Below, one piece after another: positions 3,011 through 33,131 of a stretch of 64,000 bases of DNA. This DNA comes from Pelagibacteraceae bacterium AG-422-N09. Its GTDB lineage: Bacteria > Pseudomonadota > Alphaproteobacteria > Pelagibacterales > AG-422-B15. Numbering within the stretch: the stretch's first letter is position 1; each line of letters opens with the position of its first letter. The DNA is taken from contig QCMV01000002.1 of the NCBI GenBank assembly GCA_003213515.1, forward strand, positions 57,740 to 121,739, read 5' to 3'. A program made the translations under genes and the position numbers. Under the pieces are notes generated by a model. That model was given only the letters and a program-made list of their open reading frames with translations, was not told the origin of the DNA and ran no database searches.

Positions 3011-4198
3011 ATGAAAAATATAACTTACTGTACGCGTTGCACTATCCCTAGTACCCAAGAGGGAGTAACTTTTGATGAAATGGGAATTTGTACAGCTTGT
3101 ATTTCTTCTGAAGAAAAAATGCACATAGATTGGAATAAAAGAGAAAAGGATCTTTTAGAAATATTAAAAAATGCAAAATCAAATTCGGGAAATGGCTATG
3201 ATTGTGTATTGCCGATATCTGGTGGAAAAGATAGTTTTTTTCAAGCACATGTTCTTACTCAAGTATATGATGTTAAGCCTTTAGCAGTAACATTTAGCCA
3301 TAATTGGTTTTCGGAAACAGGTTTTTATAATCTACAGAGATGTTTGGAAGTCTTTAACTTAGATCATATACAGTTTACACCCGCAAGAAACTTAGTAAAT
3401 AAGCTTGCAAGAAAATCAATAAATGTAATAGGAGATTCTTGTTGGCATTGTCATGCAGGTGTTGGAGCATTTCCACTTCAAATTGCTACAAAATTTAAGA
3501 TTCCTTTATTAGTTTGGGGAGAATCAATAGCCGAAAATGATGGAAGAGAAGGATATGGTTGTCCCAAAATTAAGTTTGATAGAGATTATTTTACTAAAGT
3601 TTCTGCTAAGCTTACAGCTGAGGAGATGGTTGATGATAATTTATCTTCAAAAGATTTACATCCGTTTAGTCTTCCCTCTTATAAAGAAATAGACGATGCG
3701 GGTGTGCATGGTATTCATCTTGGAGATTATATTTTTTGGGACGATGAGAGGCAGACAGAATGGATAAGAGATACCTATGGTTGGAAAGAAACAGAAATGG
3801 AAGGAACATACAAAGGCTATAAAAGCGCAGAATGTATTATGTCTGGTATGCATGATTTTACTTGTTATTTAAAGAGAGGCTACGGCAGAGCTACTGTTCA
3901 AACAGCCGTAGATGTTAGAAATGGACTTCTTACTAGAAAAGAAGGTTTTGAATTAATTAAAAAGCACGATCAGGAAATTCCTGAAGCTTTAGACTATTAC
4001 CTAGAAATTACAGGCCTTAATGACAATGAGTTTTATAGGATAATGAACTCAAAAAAACTAAAAGAATTGCACGAAGTAAATATCCCTGTAAGAAAGAAAG
4101 AGCAACAAAACCTTGAGAAAATAAAGCCTTTTGTCGAACAAATAATTGAAAAGCATTTAAAAAGAGAAGATCCTAGGGTTTTGCGAGATAAAAAATAA
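3011..4198 (+). CDS. N-acetyl sugar amidotransferase (WbuX/WbpG/PseA-like PP-loop ATP pyrophosphatase)
   Basis: It has an N-terminal Cys cluster (CTRCTIP...GICTAC) and the PP-loop motif PISGGKDS. The length of 395 aa is typical of the family. Confidence 0.8.
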   Translation: MKNITYCTRCTIPSTQEGVTFDEMGICTACISSEEKMHIDWNKREKDLLEILKNAKSNSGNGYDCVLPISGGKDSFFQAHVLTQVYDVKPLAVTFSHNWFSETGFYNLQRCLEVFNLDHIQFTPARNLVNKLARKSINVIGDSCWHCHAGVGAFPLQIATKFKIPLLVWGESIAENDGREGYGCPKIKFDRDYFTKVSAKLTAEEMVDDNLSSKDLHPFSLPSYKEIDDAGVHGIHLGDYIFWDDERQTEWIRDTYGWKETEMEGTYKGYKSAECIMSGMHDFTCYLKRGYGRATVQTAVDVRNGLLTRKEGFELIKKHDQEIPEALDYYLEITGLNDNEFYRIMNSKKLKELHEVNIPVRKKEQQNLEKIKPFVEQIIEKHLKREDPRVLRDKK

Positions 4199-5524
4199 AT
4201 GATGGGTTATTTATTTCTAGAAAACTCAATCAGCGAATTATTAAATAAAATTAAAAATAAAGAATTTGCTCTTTCTGACATGATAAGTCACTCAGAAGAA
4301 GTATATCTTAGACATGAGAATGAAACAAATGCATGGAAAGAATTTGATACAGGCAGATTAAATAAATATCTTGATGATAATAATTTAAGAAATTTATCTG
4401 GAATACCTTTTGGAATAAAAGATATTTTTAATACATCTGATTTTTTTACTCAGATGGGATCAGAAATATGGAAAAACTTTTCTCCAGGAAACAATGCAAG
4501 AGTAGTTGATATGCTTATCGGCGCAGGTGCTTTTCCAATAGGAAAAACAGTAACGGCCGAATTTGCTGTTCACAAGTTAAATGAAACTCTAAATCCGCAT
4601 GATGCCTTGAGGACACCAGGTACATCTTCTAGTGGATCAGCAGCTGCTGTATCAAGAGGAGTTGTTCCATTTGCTCTTGGCACTCAAACTGCTGGATCTA
4701 TAATAAGACCTGCAAGTTTTTGTGGAGTATGGGGTATGAAGCCCTCTTTTGGAATGATTCCTAGAACAGGAATTCTTAAAACTACAGATTCATTAGATAC
4801 TGTTGGATTTTTAACAACGCATGGAAAGAATATGCGACTAATTCTTGATTCTATTAGAGTAAAAGGGCCTAACTATCCATATGTTTATAAAAATGTTGAT
4901 CTAGCTAGCAAAAGAAATAACAAGCATTGGAAAGTAGGTTTCCTAAAAACAAATCTATTTAGTAAGTCTGAACAATATGTTCAAAAAAGTATTGGCAATT
5001 TTATTAACAAACTTTCAACTATTAATACATTTGAGGTAGATGAAGTTTTGTGGCCTAGTTCAATGAATGATTTACATAGTATACATTCAACAATTTACTA
5101 TAAGTCATTAGGATATTATTTTCAAAGAGAAGAAAAACAATCCCAAAAAATTTCTGATTCAATGAAACAAATAATAAATTTATCAAAAGAAATATCCTTA
5201 GACGATTTTCAAAAAGCATTGGATAGACAAGAAAAATTTATTTATTCATTAGATGAATTGATCAAAAAATATGATTTTTTGATAACTAATAGCACAGCGA
5301 GCTCAGCGCCGCTAAGAAACGAGACTGAAATAGACGATACTTCATTGCTTTGGACAATGGGACATGTCCCTTCGATATCTGCTCCGGTATTTAAGTGTCC
5401 AAAGGGGCTTCCCTTTGGAATTCAGTTTATATCAAGAAAATGGAATGACTTTAATTTAATTAATGCCATTGAAGAGCTTATTGACATTGAGATATTACCT
5501 AAGTCTTCTGTTAAGGTACAGTGA
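4199..5524 (+). CDS. Amidase-signature (GatA-like) family amidase
   Basis: Catalytic elements are present: GIPFGIKDIF (Lys), GTSSSGSAAAV (Gly/Ser-rich signature with cis-Ser) and GTQTAGSIIRPASFCG (Ser nucleophile). The ATG directly follows the upstream TAA at 4196-4198. Confidence 0.85.
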   Translation: MMGYLFLENSISELLNKIKNKEFALSDMISHSEEVYLRHENETNAWKEFDTGRLNKYLDDNNLRNLSGIPFGIKDIFNTSDFFTQMGSEIWKNFSPGNNARVVDMLIGAGAFPIGKTVTAEFAVHKLNETLNPHDALRTPGTSSSGSAAAVSRGVVPFALGTQTAGSIIRPASFCGVWGMKPSFGMIPRTGILKTTDSLDTVGFLTTHGKNMRLILDSIRVKGPNYPYVYKNVDLASKRNNKHWKVGFLKTNLFSKSEQYVQKSIGNFINKLSTINTFEVDEVLWPSSMNDLHSIHSTIYYKSLGYYFQREEKQSQKISDSMKQIINLSKEISLDDFQKALDRQEKFIYSLDELIKKYDFLITNSTASSAPLRNETEIDDTSLLWTMGHVPSISAPVFKCPKGLPFGIQFISRKWNDFNLINAIEELIDIEILPKSSVKVQ

Positions 5525-8277
5525 TGACTAAAAGAAATTTATTAATACTTACTTCCATTAAAGAAACTAGAAATCAATCACATGATGATTGTATTTTACT
5601 AGGTGAGTGGTGCAAGGATTTAAATGAGGAAGATAAAAATTTTAATATAGAACATATTCTAAATTATCATTGGGATGATAGAGTCAAATTAAAGAGAGAT
5701 TATAAATATTTAAAAAACTTTCATTATCAATTATTAAGTGAACTAACTACAAAACTAAATTCGTTACATGGTGTCAATTATGATATTAGATATTGGAGAA
5801 TTTTATTAGATCCTTGGTTAATGGATTATGTATCAGTTTTATTTGATAGATGGGAGACTATTGATGCTGCATGTAAATTAGACAAAAAATTTGATGTTAA
5901 TTTCTTACAAAGTAATTTCTTAGATAAGTCTTTACCTTTAGGAATGAATCAGATGCATGCACACTTTAGTAAAGATTATTTCAATCAATTATTATATCAA
6001 AAAATAATTGAATATAATTATAGCGACTCATTCAATATAAAAATAGTAGATACCAAAAGAGATTTACAAAAGGATTTGTATGAGCCGTTTGTAGAAAAAG
6101 AAAGCTCATATTTTTTCAATCTTTTTAGAGGATTGTATAATCATATTGATAAGATGCTCGGAAACATTTTTAACAAATATGATGTAGTTTTTATTGACTC
6201 ATACTTTAGGTATTTTGACCTGATAAAAATAAATCTAGCTATGAATCAGTTTCCAAGATTATTTAATATGGATTTTGATTCAAAATCCAAAGAAATTAAA
6301 AGCCTTTATGAAAATCAAGATAATGAGGCTCGTAATCAAATTAAAATTTCCTTAAATAATAGTTCTAAGTTTGAAAATTTTATACTTGAGCAAATTATTA
6401 AGAATTTGCCAAAATCAATTGTAGAAAATTATTCATCTTTAAAGAATATATCCCAGCAGATAAATATTAATACCAAAGTGATAATGTCTGCAAACAGTCA
6501 TTGGGATAATCTTTTAAAAAAATTCTGGATTGCGCATAAGGTATCTCAAGGAGTAAAATTTGTTACATTAGAACATGGTGGCTCATTCCCTCCACTAAAA
6601 GAACATTTTCAATTTGAGGAAGATATAAGCGATAAAAGAGGAACCTGGTTTATTCCTTGGCATGAAAAGCACATTCAATTACCGCCTACAAAATTAGTTC
6701 ACAGAAATAAATTGATTAATAAAAGAAAAGGTTCTTCTAATCGCTATAAAAGGTGTTCTTTAATTGCTTACGGAGGAAGAAGATGGGCTTTTCGGGTTAA
6801 TTTTTATCCTCATTCATATCAGGGGCTAAAACCTTTGGAAGATAGTGTGGTATTTTACAATAATTTAGACACTAAAATAAAAGATAATTTTCAAATTAAG
6901 TTACACCATGACCTTGGATTAAATGAAATTGATAGATTTAGAAGAAAATTAGATCCTTCAAAAATATCTACCGAAAAAAATTATGATAAATTTTTAAGTA
7001 ATTCAAAAGTAATTGTTTGTACTTATCCTGAGACTACATTTGCTGAAGCAATGTCAACTAATATTCCAACAATTATGTTTTTTGATAAAAATATTTTTGA
7101 GCGAAATCCAATAACAGATAACTTACTTAACAAGCTTGTTGAAGCAAAGATAATTTTCTTCGATGCAAAAACAGCAGCTAAACATTTAAATAAAATATGG
7201 GATAATTTAGATGTCTGGTGGAATAGTGACATTGTATTGAATGCAAGAATTGAATTTAGGAAACAGGCTTCCCCAATAGACAAATATTGGATTAGTAAAT
7301 GGAAGACATTCATAAATGATAATTTTTTAAGAAATTCTCATCATAAAATGCAAGCTTATGGGAATAATTTTACTGGCTATCTAAGAGCGGGAATTTATAC
7401 AACTAGATTATTTGTTCAGAACCCTGTTGAAAGTTTGAATGAAATCATTTCTGATGTCAGAAAAGATCAAAATTCTAAACTTTTTGAGTCAAAATATAAT
7501 CTTGTTTGGTGTGCGGGTTTACCACATTCAGGAACTACTCTAGTAGAAGAAATATTTGATAGTTTGCCATATATTAGATTAAATTCATCTCCACTTAGAT
7601 TTTTTAATTCAGGTAATCTGACTCACCCTCATAGTGTTTCAAGAGAAATGTTTTTAAGCGCACCAATAAACAAATATTCATTTTTTAAAACCCATAGTCA
7701 TTATGATCCAAGTTTTCTAGAATATGCAAAACAGAGCAATGCAAGAATAATAGTTTGTCTTAGAGATATTAGAGATATGATGATTAGCAGATATTGGCAT
7801 ATTATGTCTAATAAATACCACTGGTTACATCTTAAGATCAAAGATCTTCCAATGAGAGAGGGTTTTATTGAGTCTTTGATTTCTGTTAATGAGGAAAATT
7901 ATTATTCCCCTAGACCAATTGAAGATTATTTCTTGTGGATAAAGAATTGGATAGAAGTTGAAAAAAAAGAAGATATTAAAATTATATGGTATGAAGATTA
8001 TGTTAAAAATTCAATTCAGTATATTTATAATATTTTAGATTACTTAGAATTTAGTGAAATTAATGCGAAACATATAGAAGAAAAACTTGAGTCAAAAAGG
8101 GTTAGAAATAAGTCATTTCCATTATCAAAGAGACTTTTTTTGCCAGGAAGAATGAAATCAACATATAGGTCAGGTAAATCCGGGGAGTGGCGTGAATTAT
8201 TTGATGATAATATTTCTGAGGTCTTTAATTCATATATTCCTGGAGAAATTTCAGAAATTATAGATAATAATAGATAA
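5524..8277 (+). CDS. Fusion protein: LIC12162-like putative transferase (N-terminal ~600 aa) plus a C-terminal PAPS-type sulfotransferase domain
   Basis: The N-terminus is collinear with 1194..2972 to that protein's very end (QWLRKWLKFLKI versus YWISKWKTFIND). The extra ~300 aa carry sulfotransferase motifs: GLPHSGTT (5'-PSB), FKTHSH, LRDIRDMMISRY (3'-PB) and RSGKSGEWRELF. The track start GTG 5521 and ATG 5524 are both possible; ATG 5524 overlaps the upstream TGA. Confidence 0.7.
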   Translation: MTKRNLLILTSIKETRNQSHDDCILLGEWCKDLNEEDKNFNIEHILNYHWDDRVKLKRDYKYLKNFHYQLLSELTTKLNSLHGVNYDIRYWRILLDPWLMDYVSVLFDRWETIDAACKLDKKFDVNFLQSNFLDKSLPLGMNQMHAHFSKDYFNQLLYQKIIEYNYSDSFNIKIVDTKRDLQKDLYEPFVEKESSYFFNLFRGLYNHIDKMLGNIFNKYDVVFIDSYFRYFDLIKINLAMNQFPRLFNMDFDSKSKEIKSLYENQDNEARNQIKISLNNSSKFENFILEQIIKNLPKSIVENYSSLKNISQQININTKVIMSANSHWDNLLKKFWIAHKVSQGVKFVTLEHGGSFPPLKEHFQFEEDISDKRGTWFIPWHEKHIQLPPTKLVHRNKLINKRKGSSNRYKRCSLIAYGGRRWAFRVNFYPHSYQGLKPLEDSVVFYNNLDTKIKDNFQIKLHHDLGLNEIDRFRRKLDPSKISTEKNYDKFLSNSKVIVCTYPETTFAEAMSTNIPTIMFFDKNIFERNPITDNLLNKLVEAKIIFFDAKTAAKHLNKIWDNLDVWWNSDIVLNARIEFRKQASPIDKYWISKWKTFINDNFLRNSHHKMQAYGNNFTGYLRAGIYTTRLFVQNPVESLNEIISDVRKDQNSKLFESKYNLVWCAGLPHSGTTLVEEIFDSLPYIRLNSSPLRFFNSGNLTHPHSVSREMFLSAPINKYSFFKTHSHYDPSFLEYAKQSNARIIVCLRDIRDMMISRYWHIMSNKYHWLHLKIKDLPMREGFIESLISVNEENYYSPRPIEDYFLWIKNWIEVEKKEDIKIIWYEDYVKNSIQYIYNILDYLEFSEINAKHIEEKLESKRVRNKSFPLSKRLFLPGRMKSTYRSGKSGEWRELFDDNISEVFNSYIPGEISEIIDNNR

Positions 8278-8395
8278 TTTTTTTAATATTTAATAGATTG
8301 CAGAAAATTATATCTGAAATATGACCAGGTATAAAGAATGTCTTAAAAATAAAGAAAGCTAGCGAAAATTATAATTTTTTATAAATATAGATTTT

Positions 8396-9154
8396 ATGAA
8401 TTTAAGAAAAAAAAATTTTTATTTTAAAAATATTACGATTGGTTCATGGATTACACTTTATAACCCAGGAATTGCAGAAATATTTTCACAAAATAAATTT
8501 GATTGGATAGTTGTAGATTTAGAGCATAGCGCGATTTCAATAGATCAGGCATCTGATTTAATCAGAATAATTGATTTATGTGGATGCAGACCTTTAGTTA
8601 GACTTACCTCTAATAGTAAGGATTTAACAAAGAGAGTTTTAGATGCAGGAGCTCACGGAATTATTGTTCCTATGATAAATTCAAAAGATGAGGCAAAGAA
8701 AGCTGTAAGCTATTCACACTATATGCCGAAAGGCGTAAGAGGTGTTGGACTAGCGAGAGCTCAAGGTTATGGAAGTAAATTTGATGAATATGTTCGATGG
8801 CAAGAAAATGAGCCACTTATTATTGCTCAAATTGAACACGTTAACGCAATAAATAATATTGAAGAAATTGTCTCGGTTAGTGGAATAGATGGCGTTTTTA
8901 TTGGTCCATATGACCTGTCTGGATCTATTGGAAGATCTGGAGATTTTACTTCAACGAAGTATAAAAACTCAATCAAAAAAGTAAAAGCAGTTGTTAAATC
9001 AAAAAATAAAATACTTGGCATTCATGTTGTTGAGCCTGATGTCTTCGAGGTAAATAAAGCAATAAGAGATGGATTCAGCTTTATCTCATTTAGTGTTGAT
9101 ATCAGAATTTTAGACTCTAATATAAAAAATGCTATTCAAAAAATAAGAAAATAA
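8396..9154 (+). CDS. HpcH/HpaI-family class II (pyruvate) aldolase
   Basis: Family pattern: GSWITLYNPGIAEI, DWIVVDLEHS, RPLVRL, LDAGAHGIIVPMINSKDEA, YMPKGVRGVG. Confidence 0.8.
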   Translation: MNLRKKNFYFKNITIGSWITLYNPGIAEIFSQNKFDWIVVDLEHSAISIDQASDLIRIIDLCGCRPLVRLTSNSKDLTKRVLDAGAHGIIVPMINSKDEAKKAVSYSHYMPKGVRGVGLARAQGYGSKFDEYVRWQENEPLIIAQIEHVNAINNIEEIVSVSGIDGVFIGPYDLSGSIGRSGDFTSTKYKNSIKKVKAVVKSKNKILGIHVVEPDVFEVNKAIRDGFSFISFSVDIRILDSNIKNAIQKIRK

Positions 9155-9169
9155 CAGTAAAAAAATTAA

Positions 9170-9946
9170 ATGAATACCATTGGCATCATTCCAGTAAGAA
9201 TGGACTCGACAAGATTTTATGGGAAACCTATGGCTAATATATGTGGGATTCCTATGGTAGGTCATTGTTTTTATCGATCTTGCTTAGCGTTAGGAAGTAA
9301 TAAAGTTTTTGTCGCTACATGTGACAAAATAATTGCAGATTATATTAGTAGTATCGGCGGACAAGTAGTTCTTACATCAAAAAAACATAAAAGGGCGACA
9401 ACGAGGACTGCTGAAGCAAAAAGGAAAATCGAGAAGAAATATAAAGATAAGATAGAAGCAATAGTTATGATTCAAGGAGATGAACCAACTATAAATAATA
9501 AATCTATTTCTGAGGTTGCAAAAGAATTAAAAAAATCAAAAAAAAATATTATCAATCTAGTTTCAATCATTAATTCTAAGAAAAATTTAAGAGATCAAAA
9601 TAATGTAAAAGTGATTCTTAATAAGAATAGACAAGCTATCTATTATTCTCGGTATCCTATACCTTTTTTGATAGATAAATCAAAAAAAACAGATTTTTAC
9701 ATGCAAACAGGTATCATTGGATTCAAGTCAAGTAAGCTTGATAAGTTTAATAACCTAGATGAAACAATATTAGAAAAGTTGGAATCAGTCGATATGAATA
9801 GATTAATAGAAAACAATGAATCTATAGATACAATATGTACCAACTATCCAACTATTAGTGTAGATACAAGAAAAGAACTCAAGGCTGCTGAAAAATTAAT
9901 AATAAAGGATCGTTTGATTAATAAATATAAAAAATTAATAAGATAA
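9170..9946 (+). CDS. KdsB/NeuA-type cytidylyltransferase (CMP-ulosonic acid synthetase family)
   Basis: The N-terminus IGIIPVRMDSTRFYGKPMANICGIPMVGH and the QGDEP motif are as in 3-deoxy-manno-octulosonate cytidylyltransferases. Confidence 0.75.
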   Translation: MNTIGIIPVRMDSTRFYGKPMANICGIPMVGHCFYRSCLALGSNKVFVATCDKIIADYISSIGGQVVLTSKKHKRATTRTAEAKRKIEKKYKDKIEAIVMIQGDEPTINNKSISEVAKELKKSKKNIINLVSIINSKKNLRDQNNVKVILNKNRQAIYYSRYPIPFLIDKSKKTDFYMQTGIIGFKSSKLDKFNNLDETILEKLESVDMNRLIENNESIDTICTNYPTISVDTRKELKAAEKLIIKDRLINKYKKLIR

Positions 9947-10920
9947 TGATGAATAAGATAAAAAAAATATTGCTAAATTTAATTGATAGTTCACGTAAAA
10001 AAAAAATTAATAAAAGCATACAAAATATACTTTCATCTCAAAAAATTGGATTTATTGATATTGGAGCAGCTGGCAACATACATCCAAGATGGGAGAAGAT
10101 AAGTAAACATATTAATTATTATGGGTTTGAACCAGATCTTAGATCGTATAATCTTTTAGTTAATAAAAAGAACGAATGTCATGAATATAAGATATTTAAT
10201 ACGGCAATATGGGAAAGTGACTCAGAGATTCAAATAAATTTATGCAAGAAGCCATGGGTCTCATCTTTTTATACTCCAAACTATAATTTTTTAGATAATT
10301 TTCCTGAAAATGATAGATACACTGTCATTGAAAAAGAAAATATGAAAACGTCTTCATTGGACAATGTTAATTTCAGTGAAAAAGACTTTATAAAAATTGA
10401 TATTCAAGGTGGGGAACTAAAAGTTCTTAAAGGAGCTTCTAAAACACTCCATCATTGCCTAGGACTTGAAATTGAAGTTGAGTTTCTTGAACTATATGAA
10501 TCCCAGCCACTATTTGGTGAATTATGTTTATTTCTAAAGAATGAAGGATTTGAATTTATAGATTTTATCTCTTTGAATAGGTGGGAGAGAGATAAATATG
10601 ACGGATATGGACAAAGCACTTTTGGCGATGCACTTTTTATGAGAACACCTGAACACATGCAAAAGTTTTTTTCAAAAGATTCAAATAAAATAAAAAAATA
10701 TATAGCTACATGTGTTTTATATAATCGCTATGATTATATTGAGACAATTACTAATTCAAAAATTTTCTCTGCAAACTTTTCATTTGAAGAAATTAAAAAG
10801 ATAAAAAAATCAGCAGACAAAATGAAAACAAACCATATTAAAGTAAGATCAGTTAATAAATTTTTTAATAAAATTTTAAGAATTATGGATGACAATAACA
10901 GTTTGCATCTTTTTTACTAA
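9946..10920 (+). CDS. FkbM-family methyltransferase
   Basis: Motifs IDIGAAGN, YGFEPD and IKIDIQGGELKVLKGA. The TAATG start overlaps the upstream stop. Confidence 0.75.
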   Translation: MMNKIKKILLNLIDSSRKKKINKSIQNILSSQKIGFIDIGAAGNIHPRWEKISKHINYYGFEPDLRSYNLLVNKKNECHEYKIFNTAIWESDSEIQINLCKKPWVSSFYTPNYNFLDNFPENDRYTVIEKENMKTSSLDNVNFSEKDFIKIDIQGGELKVLKGASKTLHHCLGLEIEVEFLELYESQPLFGELCLFLKNEGFEFIDFISLNRWERDKYDGYGQSTFGDALFMRTPEHMQKFFSKDSNKIKKYIATCVLYNRYDYIETITNSKIFSANFSFEEIKKIKKSADKMKTNHIKVRSVNKFFNKILRIMDDNNSLHLFY

Positions 10921-11984
10921 TGGGAAAAAAAATTAAAATTGCAATAGCCGGTTATGGAGTAGTTGGAAAACTAAGACATAAATCAATTAATAAAAATAAA
11001 GATTTTGATTTAATCGCAGTATGTGACAGAAAATTCAAAAAAAATGGAGTCTTTAGCAATGGTATTCAATATTATAGATATTATAAGGAACTGCTCGAAT
11101 TAGACATTGATGCTATAATAATTTGTTTAACTAATGATGTTGCTGCTCAAGCTACCCTTGATTCACTAAAAAAAAATAAGCATGTTTTTTGTGAGAAGCC
11201 TCCAGGCGTTCGATTAAGAGATATATTTACCATATATAAATATTTAAAGAAAAATAAAAAACTAAAGCTAATGTATGGATTTAATCATCGTTATCACCAG
11301 TCAATTCAAGATGCTATTGATATAGTTAACTCTGAAAAGTATGGAAAGATAATTAACATGAGAGCAGTTTATGGTAAGTCAAATATAATTACTTTCAATC
11401 AATCCGATTGGAGAACAAAAAGGAAAATAGCTGGAGGTGGTATTCTATTAGATCAAGGTATTCATATTCTTGACTTATTAAGATTATTTGCTGGAGATTT
11501 TAATCAAATAAAAAGTTTTGTTTCTAATAATTATTGGAAATTCGATGTAGAAGATAATGTATACGCAGTAATGAAAACAAGATCAGGAATTCATGCTTCA
11601 ATAAACTCCTCAGCTACTCAATGGCCACATAAGTTTTCTCTTGAAATCAATCTTGAAAAGGGATCGGTGGTTTTATCAGGAATTTTATCTAATTCAAAAA
11701 GTTATGGTAAAGAAACAATAAAGTTATTAAAAAAGAAAAAAAATGATAATAAATTTAAGCAAAATATAAAAATAAAAAAATACACAAAAGATATATCATG
11801 GGACAAAGAACTAGAATCCTTTTCAGACATTATTAAAAACAAGAAATCATCAAAAAAAGGTAGCATTAGTGAAGCATTTCTTACTATGAAATTAGTTTTC
11901 TTAATATATTACAGCGACAAAGAATGGAGGAAAAAATACAATATTGAGAATCCTAATAAATTTACTATCGATGAAGAAAAATAA
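10920..11984 (+). CDS. Gfo/Idh/MocA-family NAD(P)-dependent oxidoreductase
   Basis: The N-terminal Rossmann segment KIAIAGYGVVGKLR and the CEKPPG (EKP) motif are typical of the family. Confidence 0.8.
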   Translation: MGKKIKIAIAGYGVVGKLRHKSINKNKDFDLIAVCDRKFKKNGVFSNGIQYYRYYKELLELDIDAIIICLTNDVAAQATLDSLKKNKHVFCEKPPGVRLRDIFTIYKYLKKNKKLKLMYGFNHRYHQSIQDAIDIVNSEKYGKIINMRAVYGKSNIITFNQSDWRTKRKIAGGGILLDQGIHILDLLRLFAGDFNQIKSFVSNNYWKFDVEDNVYAVMKTRSGIHASINSSATQWPHKFSLEINLEKGSVVLSGILSNSKSYGKETIKLLKKKKNDNKFKQNIKIKKYTKDISWDKELESFSDIIKNKKSSKKGSISEAFLTMKLVFLIYYSDKEWRKKYNIENPNKFTIDEEK

Positions 11985-12705
11985 TTTACTTGAAATTGCA
12001 AAAAAAGCATCTTTAGCTGCTTTAGAATCTTTGGAATTAAACAAAGATAAAGAACTTAAATCTAGTTATGATGTAGATTTAATAAGGGAGATGAAAAGTG
12101 AAATAGATATTATTAATAATAATAAAATACTTAATGTATTAAAAAAAACAGGTATACCAATTTTGTCTGAAGAAAATATAAAAGAAATAGACCATAGTGA
12201 ATATTGTTGGATTGTAGATCCATTAGACGGCACAGTAAATTATATAAGAAATATAGCTAGTTGTGGCATATCAATAGCCCTCTTTAAAAATAGTAAACCT
12301 ATTTTCGGCGTAATTGCTGAGTATCCAGATAAAAATCTATATTGGGGAGGTAAAGAATTTGGAGCTTTCAGAAATGGAGTTCCAATCAAAGTTTCAAAAA
12401 TATCGAACAAAAAGGAGGCTATTCTGTGCACAGGATTTCCCGCAAGATATGATTTTGATGAATTAGATGATACACAATTATTTAGAGAATATGCAAAAAT
12501 AAGAATGCTTGGATCGGCTTCAATTAGTTTGGTAAATCTTGCCAAGGGAAGTGTAGATTGTTACTTAGAAAAAAACATAATGATATGGGATATAGCGGCG
12601 GGAATAGCGTTACTTGAGGGTGCCGGTGGAGAATATAAAATTCAGAATTTAAAATTCCTATCTCCATTAAATCTTATTGCACATAATGGGATTTTAAATA
12701 TATGA
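11971..12705 (+). CDS. Inositol-monophosphatase-family phosphatase (island copy)
   Basis: Motifs WIVDPLDGTVNY and MIWDIAAG. The track ORF starts at TTG 11944. ATG 11971 (MKKNNLLEIAKKAS) is the more conservative start and overlaps the upstream gene by 14 nt. Confidence 0.8.
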   Translation: MKKNNLLEIAKKASLAALESLELNKDKELKSSYDVDLIREMKSEIDIINNNKILNVLKKTGIPILSEENIKEIDHSEYCWIVDPLDGTVNYIRNIASCGISIALFKNSKPIFGVIAEYPDKNLYWGGKEFGAFRNGVPIKVSKISNKKEAILCTGFPARYDFDELDDTQLFREYAKIRMLGSASISLVNLAKGSVDCYLEKNIMIWDIAAGIALLEGAGGEYKIQNLKFLSPLNLIAHNGILNI

Positions 12706-13628
12706 AAAATAATAAAAAAGATTTTATTGCTGTATGTTCCCGGTCCTTTTCAGCAAATCCATTATTAAGAAAAAAAATTTTATCCAAATATAAAAATGTA
12801 AAGTTTAATGACAGGGGTATTAAACTAGAGGGAAGTAGTCTTCATAGCTTTGTTAAAGGAGCTTCTAAAATAATTGTAGGACTAGAAAAAATTGATAAAC
12901 AATTGTTGGCTTCACTCCCAGAATTAAAACTTATTTCAAAATATGGAGTTGGAATTGATAATATAGATACCCATGCAATGAAAAAATATAATAAGAAGCT
13001 TGTTAACTATGAGGGTGTAAATAAAAGATCAATTTCAGAACTTATTTTATTGTTAATATTGAATAGTATGAGGAAAATCAAATTGATTAATAGTGATATA
13101 ACTCTCGGAAAGTGGAAACAAAGAGTTGGATCGGAATTAAGTGGTAAGACTGTCGGAATTATTGGATTTGGAAATATTGGCCAAGATTTAAGTGTTATTT
13201 TAAGGCCTTTTGAATGTAAAATTATTTTTTATGATATTAGTATTAATCATGTAAAAAAAAATATTTTAAGAAAAGTAAAAAGAGTTAGTCTAAACAAACT
13301 TCTTACATCAGCAGATATCATAACATTAAACTTGCCATACAATAGGTATACGAAGAATATTATTGATAAAAATAATATCAAATTGATGAAGTCAAATTCG
13401 ATTTTAATCAATACTGCAAGAGGAGGACTGGTTGATGAGAAAGCATTATTCAGAGCTTTAAAACAAAAAAAAATTGCGGCAGCAGCTTTTGATGTATTTG
13501 AGAAAGAGCCTCCTCAAAATTCTAATCTGTTGAAATTAGATAACTTTTTTGCTACTTCTCATATCGGAAGTATTACCAATGAAGCAATTATTAGGATGGG
13601 AATGGCTGCTATAAAAGGCTTACAGTAA
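12702..13628 (+). CDS. D-isomer-specific 2-hydroxyacid dehydrogenase (phosphoglycerate dehydrogenase-like)
   Basis: Motifs GKTVGIIGFGNIGQ (NAD binding), NTARGGLVDEKAL, FDVFEKEP and SHIG. There is an ATGA overlap with the upstream gene. Confidence 0.85.
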   Translation: MKNNKKDFIAVCSRSFSANPLLRKKILSKYKNVKFNDRGIKLEGSSLHSFVKGASKIIVGLEKIDKQLLASLPELKLISKYGVGIDNIDTHAMKKYNKKLVNYEGVNKRSISELILLLILNSMRKIKLINSDITLGKWKQRVGSELSGKTVGIIGFGNIGQDLSVILRPFECKIIFYDISINHVKKNILRKVKRVSLNKLLTSADIITLNLPYNRYTKNIIDKNNIKLMKSNSILINTARGGLVDEKALFRALKQKKIAAAAFDVFEKEPPQNSNLLKLDNFFATSHIGSITNEAIIRMGMAAIKGLQ

Positions 13629-13644
13629 CCTTAAGAATATCAAA

Positions 13645-15462
13645 ATGTTGAATGAAATAGAGCTAATTTGGAAACTGCCTCATAAAAAAACAGAAAAACT
13701 GTCAATTACTAAATATGTCGAAACTAACGGAATTGAAATAAGGAGAAGTTATTCAAATTTCATTCATAACCTCTCACATCAGAAAATAGGTAAAAAAAAA
13801 ATATATAATTTTTTTTTATTCAATAATCATTTTAATCTATGGTGGATGTCGCTTTTATATGAGAAAAACTTTTATAAATCAAAAAATATAAGTGAGTGCA
13901 TTAAAATTATAGGATTAGAGAAGATTATAAAAGAATTTAAGCCTCACACAATAAGACTTATATGTTCATCAAACAAAACTAGGAAGTGTATAATTGAATT
14001 ATGTAAACAGTTAGATGTTAATTTAAAAATTGATATCAAGAATAAATCTAAAAGATTTTCTAATTATAAATTTTTAAAAATTATAAAAAAAAATATTCCT
14101 TATTATTTACAAGGTTTTCTATTTCTCCTTTCTTATTATTTAAATGCTTTGAGTTTGAAAAAACTTAAAAAGCCATCTTGGATTAAATCATCAAGTAGTA
14201 TATTTTTATTTTCATATTTTACTCATTTAAAATTTAACAAAACAAACAAAAGCATTATAGAGTCAAGTCAATGGGAAGATGTTATTGGACTAATAAGAAA
14301 AAGAAGAAAGGATATTAACTGGTTACACTTTGATGGGATGACTAAAGATAATTATAAGAAAAAAAACTTCCTATCTTTATCGCCAAATAGTAAGCAATTT
14401 AGTGATTTTAACGAACAGCATTTTTTTTTAGAGGGCTATCTTAATATACAATTACTAATAAAAATTTTTTTTATTTATTCTTTTTTACATTTAAAATATT
14501 TAATATTTAGGCCTAAAAAAAATATTTTTTCAGTTAAAGATTCAAATATTAATTTATATCCCTTGTTAATTGATGATTGGCATGAATCATTTTCGGGAAT
14601 TATTTTAATGCAAAATATTATTTGGATAATATTGTTCGACTTAGCAATGAAGGACATTCCAAAAAGCAAATTTGGTCTTTTTCCTCAGGAAAATCAATCA
14701 TGGGAACGTGCATTCATCTCTTCGTGGAGAAAACATCAAACAGGAAAATTAATAGGTTATGCTCACTCCGATATTAGATTCTGGGATACCAAGTATTTCG
14801 AAAACGTGGAAATTTTTGAAAATGATAGTTTACGCTTTCCTTATTCAGATGCTTTAGCAATAAATTCTGAGAGAGCTTATGAAAACCTTATTAGTTCTAA
14901 ATTTCCGCAATCTAAAATTTTAAAGGTTGAGGCTGTAAGATATCTTCGAGTGTTAGAAAATGATAATAAAAGAAGTCTAAATGTTAATTCATTCAAAAAG
15001 ATATTAATTGTTGGTGATTACCAATTTCGATATAACTATAAGTTACTTGAAGATATATATTCATTAAATTTAAACCCAAAGAATTATAATCTTACATTTA
15101 AGTCTCATCCTGGTTTTCCAATTGATGTATCAAAATATAAATTATTTGGTTTAAAAGAAACAAATGAACCGCTTGAAGATATACTTCAGGATTATGATAT
15201 TATTGTAGCGGTAGACGCAACAGCATCTTCCATAGAGGCAGTTTTAATGAATAAATTTACTATAGTTTATTATGATAGTGCATATTTAAATTACAGTCCT
15301 TTAAGAAATAGTAACAGTGTTTCTTTTGCTAGCAATAAGTATGAGCTTGGTGAATATATAAAAAATTATGACTCAAAAGTCAAAATAGATAATCATAATT
15401 TACTCTATTTTAATAAAGACTTAAAACTCTGGAAAAATGTTATTGATAAATATGTTTACTAA
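13645..15462 (+). CDS. Large uncharacterised protein in the glycan operon, possibly an orphan transferase
   Basis: 605-aa uninterrupted ORF in very AT-rich DNA, co-directional with and 16 nt after the upstream gene. It has hydrophobic segments mid-protein. The C-terminal third (ILIVGDY..., KSHPGFP, DIIVAVDATASSIEAV) has a Rossmann-like alternation. I recognise no diagnostic motif. Confidence 0.5.
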   Translation: MLNEIELIWKLPHKKTEKLSITKYVETNGIEIRRSYSNFIHNLSHQKIGKKKIYNFFLFNNHFNLWWMSLLYEKNFYKSKNISECIKIIGLEKIIKEFKPHTIRLICSSNKTRKCIIELCKQLDVNLKIDIKNKSKRFSNYKFLKIIKKNIPYYLQGFLFLLSYYLNALSLKKLKKPSWIKSSSSIFLFSYFTHLKFNKTNKSIIESSQWEDVIGLIRKRRKDINWLHFDGMTKDNYKKKNFLSLSPNSKQFSDFNEQHFFLEGYLNIQLLIKIFFIYSFLHLKYLIFRPKKNIFSVKDSNINLYPLLIDDWHESFSGIILMQNIIWIILFDLAMKDIPKSKFGLFPQENQSWERAFISSWRKHQTGKLIGYAHSDIRFWDTKYFENVEIFENDSLRFPYSDALAINSERAYENLISSKFPQSKILKVEAVRYLRVLENDNKRSLNVNSFKKILIVGDYQFRYNYKLLEDIYSLNLNPKNYNLTFKSHPGFPIDVSKYKLFGLKETNEPLEDILQDYDIIVAVDATASSIEAVLMNKFTIVYYDSAYLNYSPLRNSNSVSFASNKYELGEYIKNYDSKVKIDNHNLLYFNKDLKLWKNVIDKYVY

Positions 15463-15488
15463 AATTTTTATTGGTATTATCTAGAATA

Positions 15489-16421
15489 ATGAAAATATTA
15501 GTAACTGGTGGGGCAGGATTCATAGGTTCTCATTTATGCGAGGCTTTATTGGGTAATAATAATAAAGTAACTTGTCTCGATAATCTATATACCGGGAATA
15601 AAGAAAATATTAAGAACTTAATTAGTAACCCAAATTTTGAGTTTATTGATTATGATATAACCAATCCTTTAAATCTCAAATTTGATCAGGTTTATAATTT
15701 AGCTTGCCCTGCTTCACCAACATATTACCAAAAAGATCCAATCAAAACTTGGGAAACAAACGTTATTGGAATTAACAATATTCTTAATATAGCAGAGAAG
15801 AATAAAGCTAAAATATTACAGGCCTCAACTAGTGAAGTCTATGGTGATCCGAAAGTTTCACCACAAAATGAAGATTACTGGGGAAATGTGAACCCAATCG
15901 GGATTAGATCTTGTTATGATGAAGGAAAGAGATCAGCAGAAGCTATTTGTATGGATTACTCTAGAAATAGAAATATTGACGTGAAAATTGCGAGAATATT
16001 TAACACATATGGATCAAAAATGCAGAGAAATGATGGTCGAGTAATCTCCAATTTTTTAGTTCAATCTATTTTGAATCAGAATATTACAATTTACGGTGAT
16101 GGCAGCCAAACCAGATCATTCTGTTACGTAGATGATTTGATACAAGGATTGATGGGTTTAATGAATGAAGATAAGATTAATCCTACTCCTTTAAACTTAG
16201 GAAATCCCAATGAATTTACAATTAGAGAATTAGCTGAGCATATTCTTAAAATTACTAAATCTAGGTCAAATATTTCTTTTCATGATCTTCCTTTAGATGA
16301 TCCCAAAATAAGAAAACCAGATATTAAAAGCGCGAAACAAAGGATTAATTGGGAGCCCAGAATTCAATTATTAGAAGGACTTGAGAGAACTTATAATTAT
16401 TTCAAACATATATTAATATAA
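15489..16421 (+). CDS. UDP-glucuronate decarboxylase (UDP-xylose synthase), extended SDR
   Basis: Motifs MKILVTGGAGFIGSHLCEALL, DNLYTG, STSEVYGDP and YDEGKR. The track start TTG 15471 is less likely than ATG 15489. Confidence 0.85.
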   Translation: MKILVTGGAGFIGSHLCEALLGNNNKVTCLDNLYTGNKENIKNLISNPNFEFIDYDITNPLNLKFDQVYNLACPASPTYYQKDPIKTWETNVIGINNILNIAEKNKAKILQASTSEVYGDPKVSPQNEDYWGNVNPIGIRSCYDEGKRSAEAICMDYSRNRNIDVKIARIFNTYGSKMQRNDGRVISNFLVQSILNQNITIYGDGSQTRSFCYVDDLIQGLMGLMNEDKINPTPLNLGNPNEFTIRELAEHILKITKSRSNISFHDLPLDDPKIRKPDIKSAKQRINWEPRIQLLEGLERTYNYFKHILI

Positions 16422-28978: not shown

Positions 28979-29476
28979 ATGTGGTTAGTCAAAAAATCAA
29001 AAGTGCATGGCTCTGGAGTATTTGCTACTAAAAATATACCTAAGGGAAAAAAAATTATTGAATATATCGGAGAAAAAATCGCTAAATCAGAGGGAGATAG
29101 GAGATCTGAATTAAGAATAAAAAAATATTTAAACTCAGATAAAACAGGTTCTGTATATATTTTTGAGTTAAATAAAAAATATGATATTGATGGATCACCT
29201 CTTTATAATAAAGCAAGATATATAAATCACTCATGTGAACCAAACTGTGAGGTAGATATTATAGATAATCAAATTTGGATTTCATCTATAAAAAAAATAA
29301 AGAGCGGTGAAGAGCTAACTTATGATTATGGTTATACTTTTGATCGAGATGATTATAAAGATCACCCATGTCGTTGTGCATCAAAAAACTGTATAGGTTA
29401 CATTATATCTTCTGATGATTGGGGTAAATTTTTGAAACATTTAAAAAAAAATATAAATAAGCTCAAAAAATTATAG
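28979..29476 (+). CDS. SET-domain protein (putative protein lysine methyltransferase)
   Basis: It has the SET core motifs ARYINHSCEPNC and GEELTYDYG, plus the post-SET Cys cluster HPCRCASKNCIGY. Confidence 0.8.
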   Translation: MWLVKKSKVHGSGVFATKNIPKGKKIIEYIGEKIAKSEGDRRSELRIKKYLNSDKTGSVYIFELNKKYDIDGSPLYNKARYINHSCEPNCEVDIIDNQIWISSIKKIKSGEELTYDYGYTFDRDDYKDHPCRCASKNCIGYIISSDDWGKFLKHLKKNINKLKKL

Positions 29477-33076: not shown

Positions 33077-33131
33077 ACTATATATAAAATTATGTATTGA
33101 ATGGCTAGATAACCTTTTGTACCATAGAAGT

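Follow-up and report, generated by a model that had tools for sequence, protein, structure and literature searches.

A pyruvate aldolase and a KdsB-like cytidylyltransferase at the core of a surface-glycan cassette proposed to make a CMP-activated 2-keto sugar acid

We analyzed a 64,000-nucleotide stretch of DNA (the window) that carries a polysaccharide locus. Within this locus, the six genes at 8396-13628 were found to be intact, all co-directional on the + strand and translationally coupled, as the original prediction had described. The block and the neighbouring features considered here were as follows.

1194-2972, + strand: LIC12162-family (TIGR04331) putative transferase, TIGR04331 at 312 bits
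5521-8277, + strand: LIC12162-family protein fused to a C-terminal sulfotransferase, TIGR04331 at 332 bits and PF00685
8278-8395, no strand: AT-rich intergenic gap of 118 bp, upstream of the block
8396-9154, + strand: HpcH_HpaI aldolase gene (ORF, Pfam/NCBIfam)
9170-9946, + strand: CTP_transf_3 (KdsB-like) cytidylyltransferase gene (ORF, Pfam/NCBIfam)
9946-10920, + strand: FkbM methyltransferase gene (ORF, matches to PF05050 and TIGR01444)
10920-11984, + strand: Gfo/Idh/MocA oxidoreductase gene (ORF, Pfam/NCBIfam)
11971 (ATG)-12705, alternative TTG start at 11944, + strand: IMPase-family phosphatase gene (ORF, PF00459)
12702-13628, + strand: D-2-hydroxyacid dehydrogenase gene (ORF, Pfam/NCBIfam)
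13645-15462, + strand: TIGR04326 "surface carbohydrate biosynthesis protein", 347 bits against a cut-off of 250
15471-16421, + strand: extended SDR (NAD-dependent epimerase/dehydratase), Pfam Epimerase and GDP_Man_Dehyd

The Pfam and NCBIfam profiles confirmed the six predicted families and their order, and all six proteins carried their hallmark catalytic motifs. The start/stop overlaps claimed at 9946, 10920, 11971-11984 and 12702 were all present. The first two are TAATG overlaps, the Gfo/Idh/MocA and IMPase genes overlap by 14 nt with an ATG start that the gene callers also picked, and the IMPase/dehydrogenase junction is ATGA (12702-12705). The gap at 8278-8395 was indeed the biggest in the co-directional run 1194-23700, where every other gap was 38 bp or less. 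L001-L003, the nearest relatives by synteny, carry a 228-aa 6-phosphogluconolactonase-like (PGL-like) gene (PF01182) at this position, no remnant of which was found in the window's gap. The stated absence of a KdsA/NeuB synthase and a HAD phosphatase from the window also held: tblastn of the entire window returned no NeuB, HAD, SIS, AroB-like or PGL homologue, and no KdsA-type (DAHP_synth_1) match was obtained among 45 window ORFs searched with Pfam and/or NCBIfam profiles, a scan that left out about 10 ORFs of 90-360 aa at 30-64 kb.

The window aldolase matched PF03328 at 123 bits and scored far below the equivalog cut-offs for HpaI (172 bits, cut-off 369), GarL (143, cut-off 407) and RhmA (138, cut-off 441). 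By sequence comparison, it is a member of a distinct glycan-locus clade of HpcH/HpaI class II pyruvate aldolases. The catalytic residues E43-H44, R69, Q145/E147 and D173 are invariant across this clade and align with those of YfaU and GarL. At least 594 species-level genomes encode a member; they span many bacterial phyla, extend to archaea and include Dehalococcoidia, Patescibacteria, Acetivibrio, Methanoregula and Micrarchaeota. These five groups have no lipid A-Kdo, which rules out the cassette as a housekeeping Kdo supply.

Linkage was measured on the 49 loci whose flanks reached 6 kb or more on both sides. A CTP_transf_3 cytidylyltransferase lay within 6 kb of the aldolase in 47 of the 49 (96%) and within 300 bp in 33, a recurrence in unrelated phyla that goes far beyond what chance would produce. 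The second most conserved partner was the D-2-hydroxyacid dehydrogenase, present in 80% of these loci. The gene combination had been predicted to recur in other genomes; this was true of the aldolase, cytidylyltransferase and 2-hydroxyacid dehydrogenase, while the Gfo/Idh/MocA, IMPase and FkbM genes turned out to be swappable accessories. The conserved core is thus three genes rather than a six-gene unit, and in function the TIGR04326 and LIC12162 genes on its flanks belong to the unit as well. A search of the literature found no description of this widespread cassette in the searchable library, and it is apparently undescribed.

The accessory genes showed a pattern of exclusion. The HAD phosphatase (37 loci), the IMPase (8 loci) and an AroB-like phospholyase (13 loci) never co-occurred, which argues for an obligatory phosphorylated intermediate. 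Likewise, GmhA-like SIS isomerases (12 loci) and PGL-like proteins (13 of 83 loci) were never found together. Gfo/Idh/MocA enzymes were absent from all 37 loci with a HAD phosphatase and accompanied an extended SDR in only 3 loci, but were present in 7/8 IMPase loci and 11/13 AroB-like loci. Type-A loci combine the same aldolase orthologue with a HAD phosphatase and an extended SDR, and contain no Gfo/Idh/MocA, IMPase or cyclase gene; in most type-B loci a methyltransferase (Methyltransf_23 type or FkbM) follows the cytidylyltransferase. The aldolases of two locus architectures were intermixed, with 52% identity between types and 55-60% within, so a core chemistry common to both is indicated. 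NeuB was encoded nearby in 14 loci, and in the 9 of these with a single cytidylyltransferase within 7 kb, that enzyme could be shared with, or part of, the NeuB route.

The window cytidylyltransferase matched PF02348 at 138 bits and passed the NCBIfam "KdsB" subfamily NF003952 (225.6 bits, cut-off 193), but fell below the KdsB equivalog cut-offs TIGR00466 and NF003948. Its closest PDB relatives were all KdsB or KpsU. To our knowledge, the characterized members of this family all activate 2-keto-3-deoxy ulosonic acids. The 60 members of the cassette KdsB-like clade keep the P-loop, QGDEP and the C-terminal Asp. In contrast, D50, SGTER, RH and LEQLR, invariant in four solved KdsB enzymes, are substituted across all 60, and the KdsB-invariant residues of the Kdo-binding C-terminal domain are systematically replaced. 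The roles of the KdsB nucleotide and Mg residues D95, D219 and K19 were taken from PMC3149649. As judged from these substitutions, the cassette enzyme has a remodelled sugar pocket and retains the nucleotide and Mg residues. Beside the aldolase, 60 loci have a KdsB-like cytidylyltransferase and 13 have one of a different CTP_transf_3 subtype ("HSTNP") that we take to be NeuA-like; in an Acuticoccus plasmid cassette PGAP names the enzyme "acylneuraminate cytidylyltransferase family".

The remaining block enzymes are more variable. The IMPase-family protein (PF00459 at 153 bits; EE, DPLDGT and WDIAAG motifs) is the third paralogue in the window, with two further IMPase genes in the core part, and is proposed to be an island-dedicated dephosphorylating enzyme, a functional analogue of KdsC. 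For the Gfo/Idh/MocA protein, which carries GYGVVG and EKP motifs, we propose an accessory NAD(P) sugar oxidoreductase role that is largely filled by an extended SDR elsewhere, and for the FkbM methyltransferase an accessory tailoring step. The D-2-hydroxyacid dehydrogenase gave Pfam and PGDH-like matches under every equivalog cut-off, with catalytic NTARG, EKEP and SHIGS present. However, it lacks the PGDH "VRS" motif and has G-x-E instead, as in glyoxylate/hydroxypyruvate reductases, which weakens the earlier idea of a 3-phosphohydroxypyruvate donor. Its role may be to provide a 2-keto-acid donor or to convert aldonate and ulosonate into each other. A simple Kdo-like scheme does not require it, and its near-universal presence hints at chemistry outside our model.

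Putative transferase genes of four families (TIGR04326, LIC12162, u430 and a PF01973 Maf-type protein) were found beside the cassette, the first three mutually homologous. TIGR04326 lies directly downstream in several unrelated loci (e.g., L005, L019, L044, L059 and L080). Against the PDB, its profile matched only KpsC and WbbB, both CMP-Kdo-dependent beta-Kdo transferases, and weakly (E 0.006 to 0.6), over the K-x-H-P region. The AF2 model (pLDDT 91) has a GT-B fold, and in a Foldseek search with this model neither Kdo nor sialyl transferases stood out. From profile and model, the window protein is a candidate transferase for the CMP-sugar. The C-terminal half of LIC12162 is homologous to the TIGR04326 family (hhalign probability 96.8%, E 2e-10), and the gene next before the aldolase is of the LIC12162 family in L005, L059 and L080; L041 and L075 have one a short distance upstream. 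The fusion directly upstream of the window block (LIC12162 domain at residues ~8-597, PF00685 sulfotransferase at 662-906) also occurs in L001 and L007-L012. The SDR at 15471-16421 is a possible additional pathway or tailoring enzyme; its L001 orthologue groups with the "SDRepi" partner cluster of type-A cassettes.

The gene content, intact catalytic motifs, cross-phylum linkage, interchangeable modules and non-KdsB sugar pocket are the observations from which we infer every chemical step, the step order, the phosphate position and the sugar identity. Our favoured reading, with a probability of roughly 0.6, is a pathway of the Kdo/Kdn kind whose PEP-dependent synthase has given way to a class II pyruvate aldolase, the module providing a CMP-activated 2-keto (ulosonic-type) sugar acid for the cell-surface polysaccharide of the surrounding island. 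A point against it is that class II pyruvate aldolases act reversibly and are classically enzymes of catabolism. In this reading the aldolase, as the proposed C-C bond-forming enzyme and functional analogue of KdsA/NeuB, would join an aldose phosphate to pyruvate, or possibly hydroxypyruvate. The IMPase-family enzyme would then remove the phosphate in place of KdsC, and the Gfo/Idh/MocA enzyme, the D-2-hydroxyacid dehydrogenase and the FkbM methyltransferase would supply or tailor the substrate. The KdsB-like enzyme is proposed to couple the keto acid to CMP, with pyrophosphate release pulling the aldol reaction forward, and the flanking GT-B proteins of the TIGR04326 and LIC12162 families would transfer the sugar to the glycan. 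The original prediction had cast the aldolase and a non-HAD phosphatase as stand-ins for KdsA/NeuB and KdsC, which gains support from the cross-phylum synteny and, for the phosphatase, from the mutual exclusion of IMPase, HAD and AroB-like phospholyase. Its non-canonical keto-acid activation is backed by the remodelled pocket and by cassettes in LPS-less lineages, and its transfer to a surface glycan by the transferase genes attached to the cassette.

In an unlikely alternative, the product arises by oxidations and is a 2-keto-aldonate, a 3-hydroxy ulosonic acid of the 2-ketogluconate type. The Gfo/Idh/MocA enzyme or extended SDR would oxidize C1 of an aldose phosphate to a lactone, opened by the PGL-like lactonase where present; the 2-hydroxyacid dehydrogenase would oxidize C2, and the phosphatase and then the cytidylyltransferase would act. 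Under this scheme no recurrent accessory is left without a function. The PGL-like gene at the gap position in L001-L003 passes the 6-phosphogluconolactonase cut-off (155.7 bits vs 124), the Gfo family includes aldose 1-dehydrogenases, and the dehydrogenase combines its reductase-type substrate motif with a "probable 2-ketogluconate reductase" among its PDB relatives. However, the aldolase, the tightest-linked partner of the cytidylyltransferase, would become marginal, merely epimerizing or exchanging part of the chain by retro-aldol/aldol reaction with hydroxypyruvate. Moreover, L051 and L090 have the aldolase, cytidylyltransferase and methyltransferases but no 2-hydroxyacid dehydrogenase or oxidoreductase, and PGL is confined to its 13 loci and missing from the window.

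We consider quite improbable a cyclitol-derived acid, in which the aldolase would add pyruvate to an inosose-type cyclic ketone to give a carbocycle-bearing (bicyclic) 2-keto acid for CMP activation. The ketone would come from the IMPase and an IolG-like Gfo/Idh/MocA enzyme, or elsewhere from an AroB-like sugar-phosphate cyclase, an SDR and Gfo/Idh/MocA. The association of Gfo/Idh/MocA with IMPase and AroB-like genes fits this, as does the AroB-like partner, which passes TIGR04425, "putative sugar phosphate phospholyase (cyclizing)". The top NCBIfam match of the window Gfo/Idh/MocA protein is inositol 2-dehydrogenase (IolG), but at 100.7 bits it is far short of the 355 cut-off, and no inositol-phosphate synthase was found among the profile-scanned window ORFs. 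The type-A loci, where HAD and an extended SDR take the place of these genes, exclude a cyclitol as the general acceptor.

Ordinary CMP-Kdo supply, by a capsule-type second KdsB (like KpsU) fed by housekeeping KdsA/KdsC, with the aldolase and dehydrogenases in unrelated tailoring or salvage, is very unlikely. The NF003952 score, the KdsB and KpsU relatives and the weak likeness of the TIGR04326 neighbour to beta-Kdo transferases point towards it. Against it stand the failed equivalog cut-offs, the replaced Kdo-binding residues, the tie of the cytidylyltransferase gene to the aldolase across phyla, the cassettes of archaea and monoderm bacteria without a Kdo pathway, and the 13 loci that pair the same aldolase with the other subtype.

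Finally, a catabolic or salvage sugar-acid cluster placed in the island by chance is scarcely credible. Sugar-acid catabolism does typically employ HpcH aldolases, Gfo/Idh/MocA enzymes and 2-hydroxyacid dehydrogenases, in line with the PDB relatives, but transporter, kinase, dehydratase and regulator are all absent, translational coupling ties the genes to a cytidylyltransferase and a methyltransferase within a glycosyltransferase-rich locus, and the same linkage is kept in polysaccharide and LPS contexts of other genomes. In Nitrosomonadaceae, the cassette is located between a Wzy_C O-antigen ligase and LptF/LptG.

The six open reading frames of the block all lie on the forward strand, exactly where the original prediction had placed them, and profile-HMM searches with Pfam and NCBIfam upheld the six family assignments.

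Genes of the block (window positions; families assigned with Pfam and NCBIfam)
8396-9154, + strand, HpcH/HpaI aldolase
9170-9946, + strand, CTP_transf_3 (KdsB-like) cytidylyltransferase
9946-10920, + strand, FkbM methyltransferase
10920-11984, + strand, Gfo/Idh/MocA oxidoreductase
11971-12705, + strand, IMPase-family phosphatase (ATG start; a TTG at 11944 is also open)
12702-13628, + strand, D-2-hydroxyacid dehydrogenase

The junctions were also as described, with TAATG at 9946 and 10920, a 14-nt overlap at 11971-11984 and ATGA at 12702, and the 118-bp gap at 8278-8395 was the largest within the co-directional run 1194-23700. A relative at 64% identity showed the same gene order with a 6-phosphogluconolactonase-like (PGL) gene at the position of this gap, and a search of the gap itself found no remnant of a PGL-like gene. 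Promoter-like sites in 7900-14000 were fewer than in shuffled sequences and the terminator scan of the same region returned one candidate at chance level, both results being uninformative in DNA of 27% GC. The hallmark catalytic motifs are kept in all six products.

The block had been reported to stand in a window lacking the usual synthase and phosphatase, and tblastn agreed, showing no homologue of NeuB, HAD phosphatase, SIS isomerase, AroB-like enzyme or PGL in the window. The phosphatase slot is occupied by the IMPase, with no HAD gene found in the window by tblastn. A scan of 45 window ORFs, covering all but about ten smaller ones at 30-64 kb, gave no Pfam match to a KdsA-type (DAHP_synth_1) or NeuB synthase, and neither kdsA nor kdsC was found among these ORFs.

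The block is part of a polysaccharide island of about 27% GC that runs from ~269 to ~28.9 kb and encodes glycosyltransferases, a Bac_transf initiating transferase, CapF- and 2-epimerase-type proteins, a WbuX amidotransferase, an amidase and a sulfotransferase. Two LIC12162-family transferases (TIGR04331) lie directly upstream of the block, the second as a sulfotransferase fusion, and a surface carbohydrate biosynthesis protein of family TIGR04326 lies directly downstream. In its core-genome part, the window encodes TolB, PntAB, FtsH, transketolase and an alphaproteobacterial TrcR. Window proteins also turn up in marine assemblies, those of Tara included. The transketolase belongs to a cluster of 877 members at 90% identity, and one of these members occurred on 883 contigs. 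The source is probably a streamlined and abundant alphaproteobacterium of the sea, perhaps SAR11-like. Several marine metagenomes carry near-identical copies of the island. Within the island, a WbuX-type N-acetyl sugar amidotransferase (3011-4198, +) abuts a GatA-like amidase (4199-5524, +) with adjacent stop and start. The pair recurs in two comparison loci (L001 and L037) and so perhaps constitutes a two-component system that forms an amidine or amide for an acetamido sugar. At the island edge, 28979-29476 (+) encodes a 165-residue SET-domain protein, which is unusual for a streamlined marine bacterium.

The aldolase matched PF03328 at 123.3 bits (cut-off 25) and shares the fold and the metal and catalytic residues of HpcH/HpaI class II aldolases. 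E43-H44, R69, E147 and D173 are invariant in its clade and align with YfaU and GarL, as does a Q-x-E motif, while H148, Y172 and H210 are invariant residues specific to the clade. Enzymes of this family join pyruvate, or in some members hydroxypyruvate, to aldehydes and yield 4-hydroxy-2-oxo acids; to our knowledge, every member characterised so far is either catabolic or a biocatalytic tool. Unlike HpaI, GarL and RhmA/YfaU, the aldolase studied here occurs in glycan loci beside a cytidylyltransferase and fell under every equivalog cut-off, scoring 172, 143 and 138 bits for HpaI, GarL and RhmA against cut-offs of 369, 407 and 441.

The cytidylyltransferase has the CTP_transf_3 fold (PF02348, 137.6 bits) and retains R10, R15, K19, QGDEP (D104) and D232; the roles of the Mg-A ligands and of K19 are those described for KdsB (PMC3149649). 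CMP activation by a CTP_transf_3 enzyme, as in canonical ulosonic pathways, is predicted from the sequence. The protein scored below the KdsB equivalog cut-offs (TIGR00466, 149.7 against 155.2; NF003948, 161.2 against 281), and the only KdsB model it passed was the subfamily model NF003952 (225.6 against 193). Four solved KdsB enzymes served as the reference for the window protein and its 60-member clade. The P-loop, QGDEP and the C-terminal Asp are retained throughout the clade, but residues invariant in KdsB are replaced: D50 by C, SGTER by RA(S/T)DR, RH by KQ (K/M-Q) and LEQLR by VDMxR, the last two motifs lying in the Kdo-binding C-terminal domain. Residues specific to the clade are C51, R75, D78 (T78 in the window protein), Q179, D208 and M209. 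At 13 loci the aldolase is paired with another CTP_transf_3 subtype in which 'HSTNP' replaces 'QGDEP'. This motif resembles the NeuA-type one, and the subtype is probably NeuA-like.

The 2-hydroxyacid dehydrogenase has the catalytic Arg, Glu and His and scored below the SerA equivalog (TIGR01327, 221.5 against 454). The 'VRS' motif of the phosphoglycerate dehydrogenase (PGDH) 1WWK reads 'VG-LE' in the window protein and G-x-E across the clade, and at this position the enzyme aligns with 'SER' of glyoxylate/hydroxypyruvate reductases. A true PGDH making 3-phosphohydroxypyruvate was rejected because 'VRS' is absent, which weakens the original suggestion of that compound as a possible donor. The missing motif and the 'SER' alignment indicate that the label 'phosphoglycerate dehydrogenase' is probably over-specific. 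The Gfo oxidoreductase is not IolG at equivalog level (TIGR04380, 100.7 against 355). The phosphatase matched PF00459 at 153.2 bits with the motifs EE, DPxDG(T/S) and WDxAAG all present, and reached none of the specific equivalogs SuhB, CysQ, HisN and FBPase/IMPase. Three IMPase-family paralogues occur in the 64 kb, two in the core-genome part (32258-33211, -; 44231-45019, -) and one, 11971-12705 (+), dedicated to the island.

Homologues of the aldolase number in the thousands at 50-67% identity, and clade-specific peptide patterns placed the clade in at least 594 genomes when one genome per species was counted. Carriers include Desulfobacterota, Nitrosomonadaceae, Planctomycetota, Omnitrophota, Leptospirales, SAR86, Prochlorococcus, Dehalococcoidia, Patescibacteria, Acetivibrio and the archaea Methanoregula and Micrarchaeota. 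At 83 loci, every ORF lying 7 kb or less from the aldolase was clustered with no prior assumptions; partner frequencies, counting partners within 6 kb, were calculated from the 49 loci whose sequence extends 6 kb or more to either side of it. A cytidylyltransferase was found at 96% of these loci (within 300 bp in 33/49), a 2-hydroxyacid dehydrogenase at 80%, a Gfo oxidoreductase or extended SDR at 82%, an HAD, IMPase or AroB-like enzyme at 65%, and a protein of the TIGR04326, LIC12162 or u430 families (u430 being a family from Nitrosomonadaceae) at 49%. The six genes had been expected to co-occur as a unit; only three, the aldolase, the cytidylyltransferase and the 2-hydroxyacid dehydrogenase, are conserved across loci, and we refer to this recurrent set with its swappable accessories as the cassette. 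It is also found in organisms without LPS.

The loci showed two architectures. Type A (e.g. Nitrosomonadaceae) has the cytidylyltransferase, aldolase, 2-hydroxyacid dehydrogenase, extended SDR and HAD, with PGL added at some loci. The window belongs to type B, which has the aldolase, cytidylyltransferase, methyltransferase, Gfo and sometimes a GmhA-like SIS isomerase, then either IMPase or an SDR with an AroB-like enzyme, and lastly the 2-hydroxyacid dehydrogenase. No locus combined any two of HAD (37 loci), IMPase (8) and the AroB-like enzyme (13), and Gfo was never found with HAD, nor SIS with PGL. The aldolases of the two types are intermixed by sequence, which argues for a common core chemistry and for accessories that replace one another without being orthologous.

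The AroB-like partner scored above the cut-off of TIGR04425, 'AroB-related putative sugar phosphate phospholyase (cyclizing)'. Its gene (L036:14861-16072 and 12 other loci) fills the IMPase/HAD slot, with a classical SDR alongside in 11/13, and this placement suggests a deoxygenating alternative to dephosphorylation. Formation by this enzyme of a carbocyclic, quinate-like analogue for CMP activation was judged unlikely, as a tertiary carbinol ester should be unable to act as a glycosyl donor. NeuB was absent within 7 kb at 69/83 loci, and NeuB clusters are often neighbours; at 9 of the 14 NeuB-neighboured loci there is a single cytidylyltransferase within 7 kb, a caveat to the pathway proposed below. 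The plasmid database yielded a single, more divergent cassette (type A, 39% identity), that of the cultured alphaproteobacterium Acuticoccus sp. I52.16.1 (locus L093; plasmid NZ_CP094833.1, 97 kb, 8980-13432). It comprises an aldolase, a NeuA-family cytidylyltransferase and a 'PGDH', these three with overlapping starts and stops, followed by an HAD and an oxidoreductase, and carries the generic PGAP labels 'aldolase/citrate lyase family', 'acylneuraminate cytidylyltransferase family', 'phosphoglycerate dehydrogenase' and 'HAD family hydrolase'.

The best-supported model, to which we assign a probability of roughly 0.6, is a Kdo/Kdn-like pathway built with non-homologous parts, in line with the original proposal that the aldolase and IMPase stand in for the KdsA/NeuB synthase and the HAD phosphatase. 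Linkage, interchangeable modules, intact active sites and an altered KdsB pocket are observed, and from them we infer the following chemistry. An aldose phosphate would be formed, at some loci with supply by the SIS isomerase, and the class II aldolase would condense it with pyruvate or possibly hydroxypyruvate. IMPase or HAD would then remove the phosphate; alternatively, the AroB-like phospholyase would eliminate it and an SDR would reduce the product, giving a terminal-deoxy variant. After tailoring by Gfo or the extended SDR, the 2-hydroxyacid dehydrogenase and methyltransferases, the CTP_transf_3 enzyme would add CMP in an irreversible step that would pull the reversible aldol reaction, and a GT-B or Maf-type transferase would place the sugar onto the glycan. 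The weakest point of the model is the nearly universal 2-hydroxyacid dehydrogenase, for which it offers no explanation.

The Kdo pathway (isomerase KdsD, Kdo-8-P synthase KdsA, HAD phosphatase KdsC and CMP-Kdo synthetase KdsB) follows the same logic, in which an aldose phosphate, which an isomerase may supply, and a C3 unit give a 2-keto acid that is dephosphorylated and CMP-activated by a CTP_transf_3 enzyme; the cassette cytidylyltransferase is a KdsB homologue, and SIS isomerases and HAD phosphatases are encoded at related loci. However, the cassette has an HpcH class II aldolase in place of the PEP-dependent DAHP_synth_1-type synthase, its KdsB sugar-pocket residues are replaced and some of its carriers have no LPS, and the window has an IMPase-fold phosphatase rather than HAD together with two extra dehydrogenases and a methyltransferase. 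We also compared the nonulosonic acid and Kdn pathways (NeuB/PseI/LegI with NeuA/PseF/LegF; Kdn-9-P synthase, HAD phosphatase and CMP-Kdn synthetase in Bacteroides). The expected product is likewise a CMP-activated 2-keto-3-deoxy acid sugar that is heavily tailored (methyl, acetyl, radical SAM) and comes from a variable surface-glycan island, and some cassettes include a Maf-type PF01973 protein and the 'HSTNP' subtype. In contrast, the enzyme forming the C-C bond is non-homologous, and the window has no NeuB.

An aldonate route, in which C1 oxidation, a lactonase and C2 oxidation by the 2-hydroxyacid dehydrogenase would give a 2-keto-aldonate, accounts for both PGL and the dehydrogenase; it leaves the aldolase sidelined, and we regard it as unlikely. 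The pairing of IMPase with IolG-like genes and of AroB-like enzymes with Gfo would fit a cyclitol-derived acceptor, which is improbable given that it is incompatible with type-A loci carrying the same aldolase orthologue. Ordinary CMP-Kdo supply is highly improbable, since the cytidylyltransferase pocket is substituted, archaea and monoderm bacteria also carry the cassette, and some loci have the alternative cytidylyltransferase subtype. Catabolism is the least probable of these readings, as the aldolase is found in a context of glycan biosynthesis and not in a catabolic operon.

For the transfer step of the Kdo/Kdn-like pathway, the neighbouring orphan families are candidates. TIGR04326, LIC12162 and the u430 proteins of type-A loci (L066:5495-6766 etc.) show homology in a C-terminal stretch of 200-240 residues (hhalign probabilities of 96.8% and 95.6%); the window members are 13645-15462 (TIGR04326) and 1194-2972 (LIC12162/TIGR04331). 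TIGR04326 has 4,617 representatives at 50% identity. Among PDB sequences its profile matched only KpsC (E 0.006) and WbbB (E 0.4-0.6), weakly and in every case over the region of the K-x-H-P motif. KpsC (GT107) and WbbB (GT99) are CMP-Kdo-dependent retaining beta-Kdo transferases. The high-confidence AF2 model (pLDDT 91.4) showed a GT-B fold with a large N-terminal extension. Its best Foldseek match was the capsule polymerase multienzyme 8qoy, which we take to be TagF-like; TarL with CDP-ribitol ranked 18th and the others were generic GT-B proteins. KpsC, WbbB and the CDP-dependent TagF-like polymerases use cytidine-nucleotide-activated donors, and TIGR04326 has the GT-B fold and K-x-H-P motif in common with them; however, the sequence match is weak, with E between 0.006 and 0.6, the structural match is generic GT-B, and no GT99 or GT107 assignment is made. 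The model confirms the GT-B fold, and the TIGR04326 and LIC12162 proteins flanking the block are candidate CMP-sugar transferases. Profile searches with LIC12162 and u430 gave no meaningful matches among PDB sequences. A fourth neighbour family (c30) matched PF01973, the Maf-type domain of flagellin pseudaminic/legionaminic-acid transferases. The LIC12162-sulfotransferase fusion (5521-8277, +; 918 residues) consists of the putative transferase (~8-597) and a C-terminal PF00685 sulfotransferase (662-906) and is conserved in the relatives L001 and L007-L012, which suggests that sugar transfer and glycan sulfation are coupled.

In the literature searched, to which subscription literature did not belong, there was no description of the cassette, TIGR04326, TIGR04331, TIGR04425 or LIC13510. 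A 2026 preprint reports that CMP-linked ulosonic acids of unknown kind are still being found in environmental bacteria, and no link to the cassette can be made. The cassette would represent CMP-ulosonic-acid biosynthesis with a non-homologous synthase, and there is a realistic chance that it defines a new family of sugars as well as a new superfamily of transferases. We give even odds to the joint reading of a new class of CMP-activated sugar acids, neither Kdo nor nonulosonic, whose skeleton is made by a class II pyruvate/hydroxypyruvate aldolase instead of a PEP-dependent synthase, whose terminus is hydroxylated or deoxy according to whether a phosphatase (IMPase/HAD) or an AroB-like phospholyase with a reductase is present, and which a new GT-B superfamily (TIGR04326, LIC12162, u430) installs on surface glycans of hundreds of species, with abundant marine bacteria and nitrifiers at one end of the range and Dehalococcoidia, Patescibacteria and archaea at the other.

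CMP-activated keto sugar acids such as Kdo, sialic, pseudaminic and legionaminic acids are key in surface recognition, phage susceptibility and immune evasion, and all routes to them that we know of proceed via PEP-dependent synthases. If the reading holds, the aldolase route would be a third, non-homologous way to such sugars, three large orphan families (TIGR04326, LIC12162, u430) would gain a function, and a large number of genes that now go under the labels 'KdsB', 'phosphoglycerate dehydrogenase', 'aldolase/citrate lyase' or 'hypothetical' would be reassigned. Some of the most abundant ocean bacteria, and ammonia oxidisers, would carry unknown sugars. The hypothesis is directly testable because some carriers are in culture (Nitrosospira briensis Nsp8, Nitrosomonas oligotropha Nm45, N. 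marina Nm71, Nitrosomonas sp. Nm166 and Acuticoccus sp. I52.16.1), and the Acuticoccus plasmid cassette offers a convenient experimental system.

The Nitrosomonadaceae type-A cassette lies between the Wzy_C O-antigen ligase region and lptF/lptG. At six loci (L046, L050, L053, L073, L076 and L086) it has a fixed position, with an O-antigen-ligase/O-methyltransferase/FkbM/GT2 region on one side and lptF-lptG on the other; a DAGK-like kinase gene and a CDP-alcohol phosphatidyltransferase-like gene also lie in this interval. From this position, the cassette sugar of ammonia oxidisers may be a component of the LPS core or outer core.
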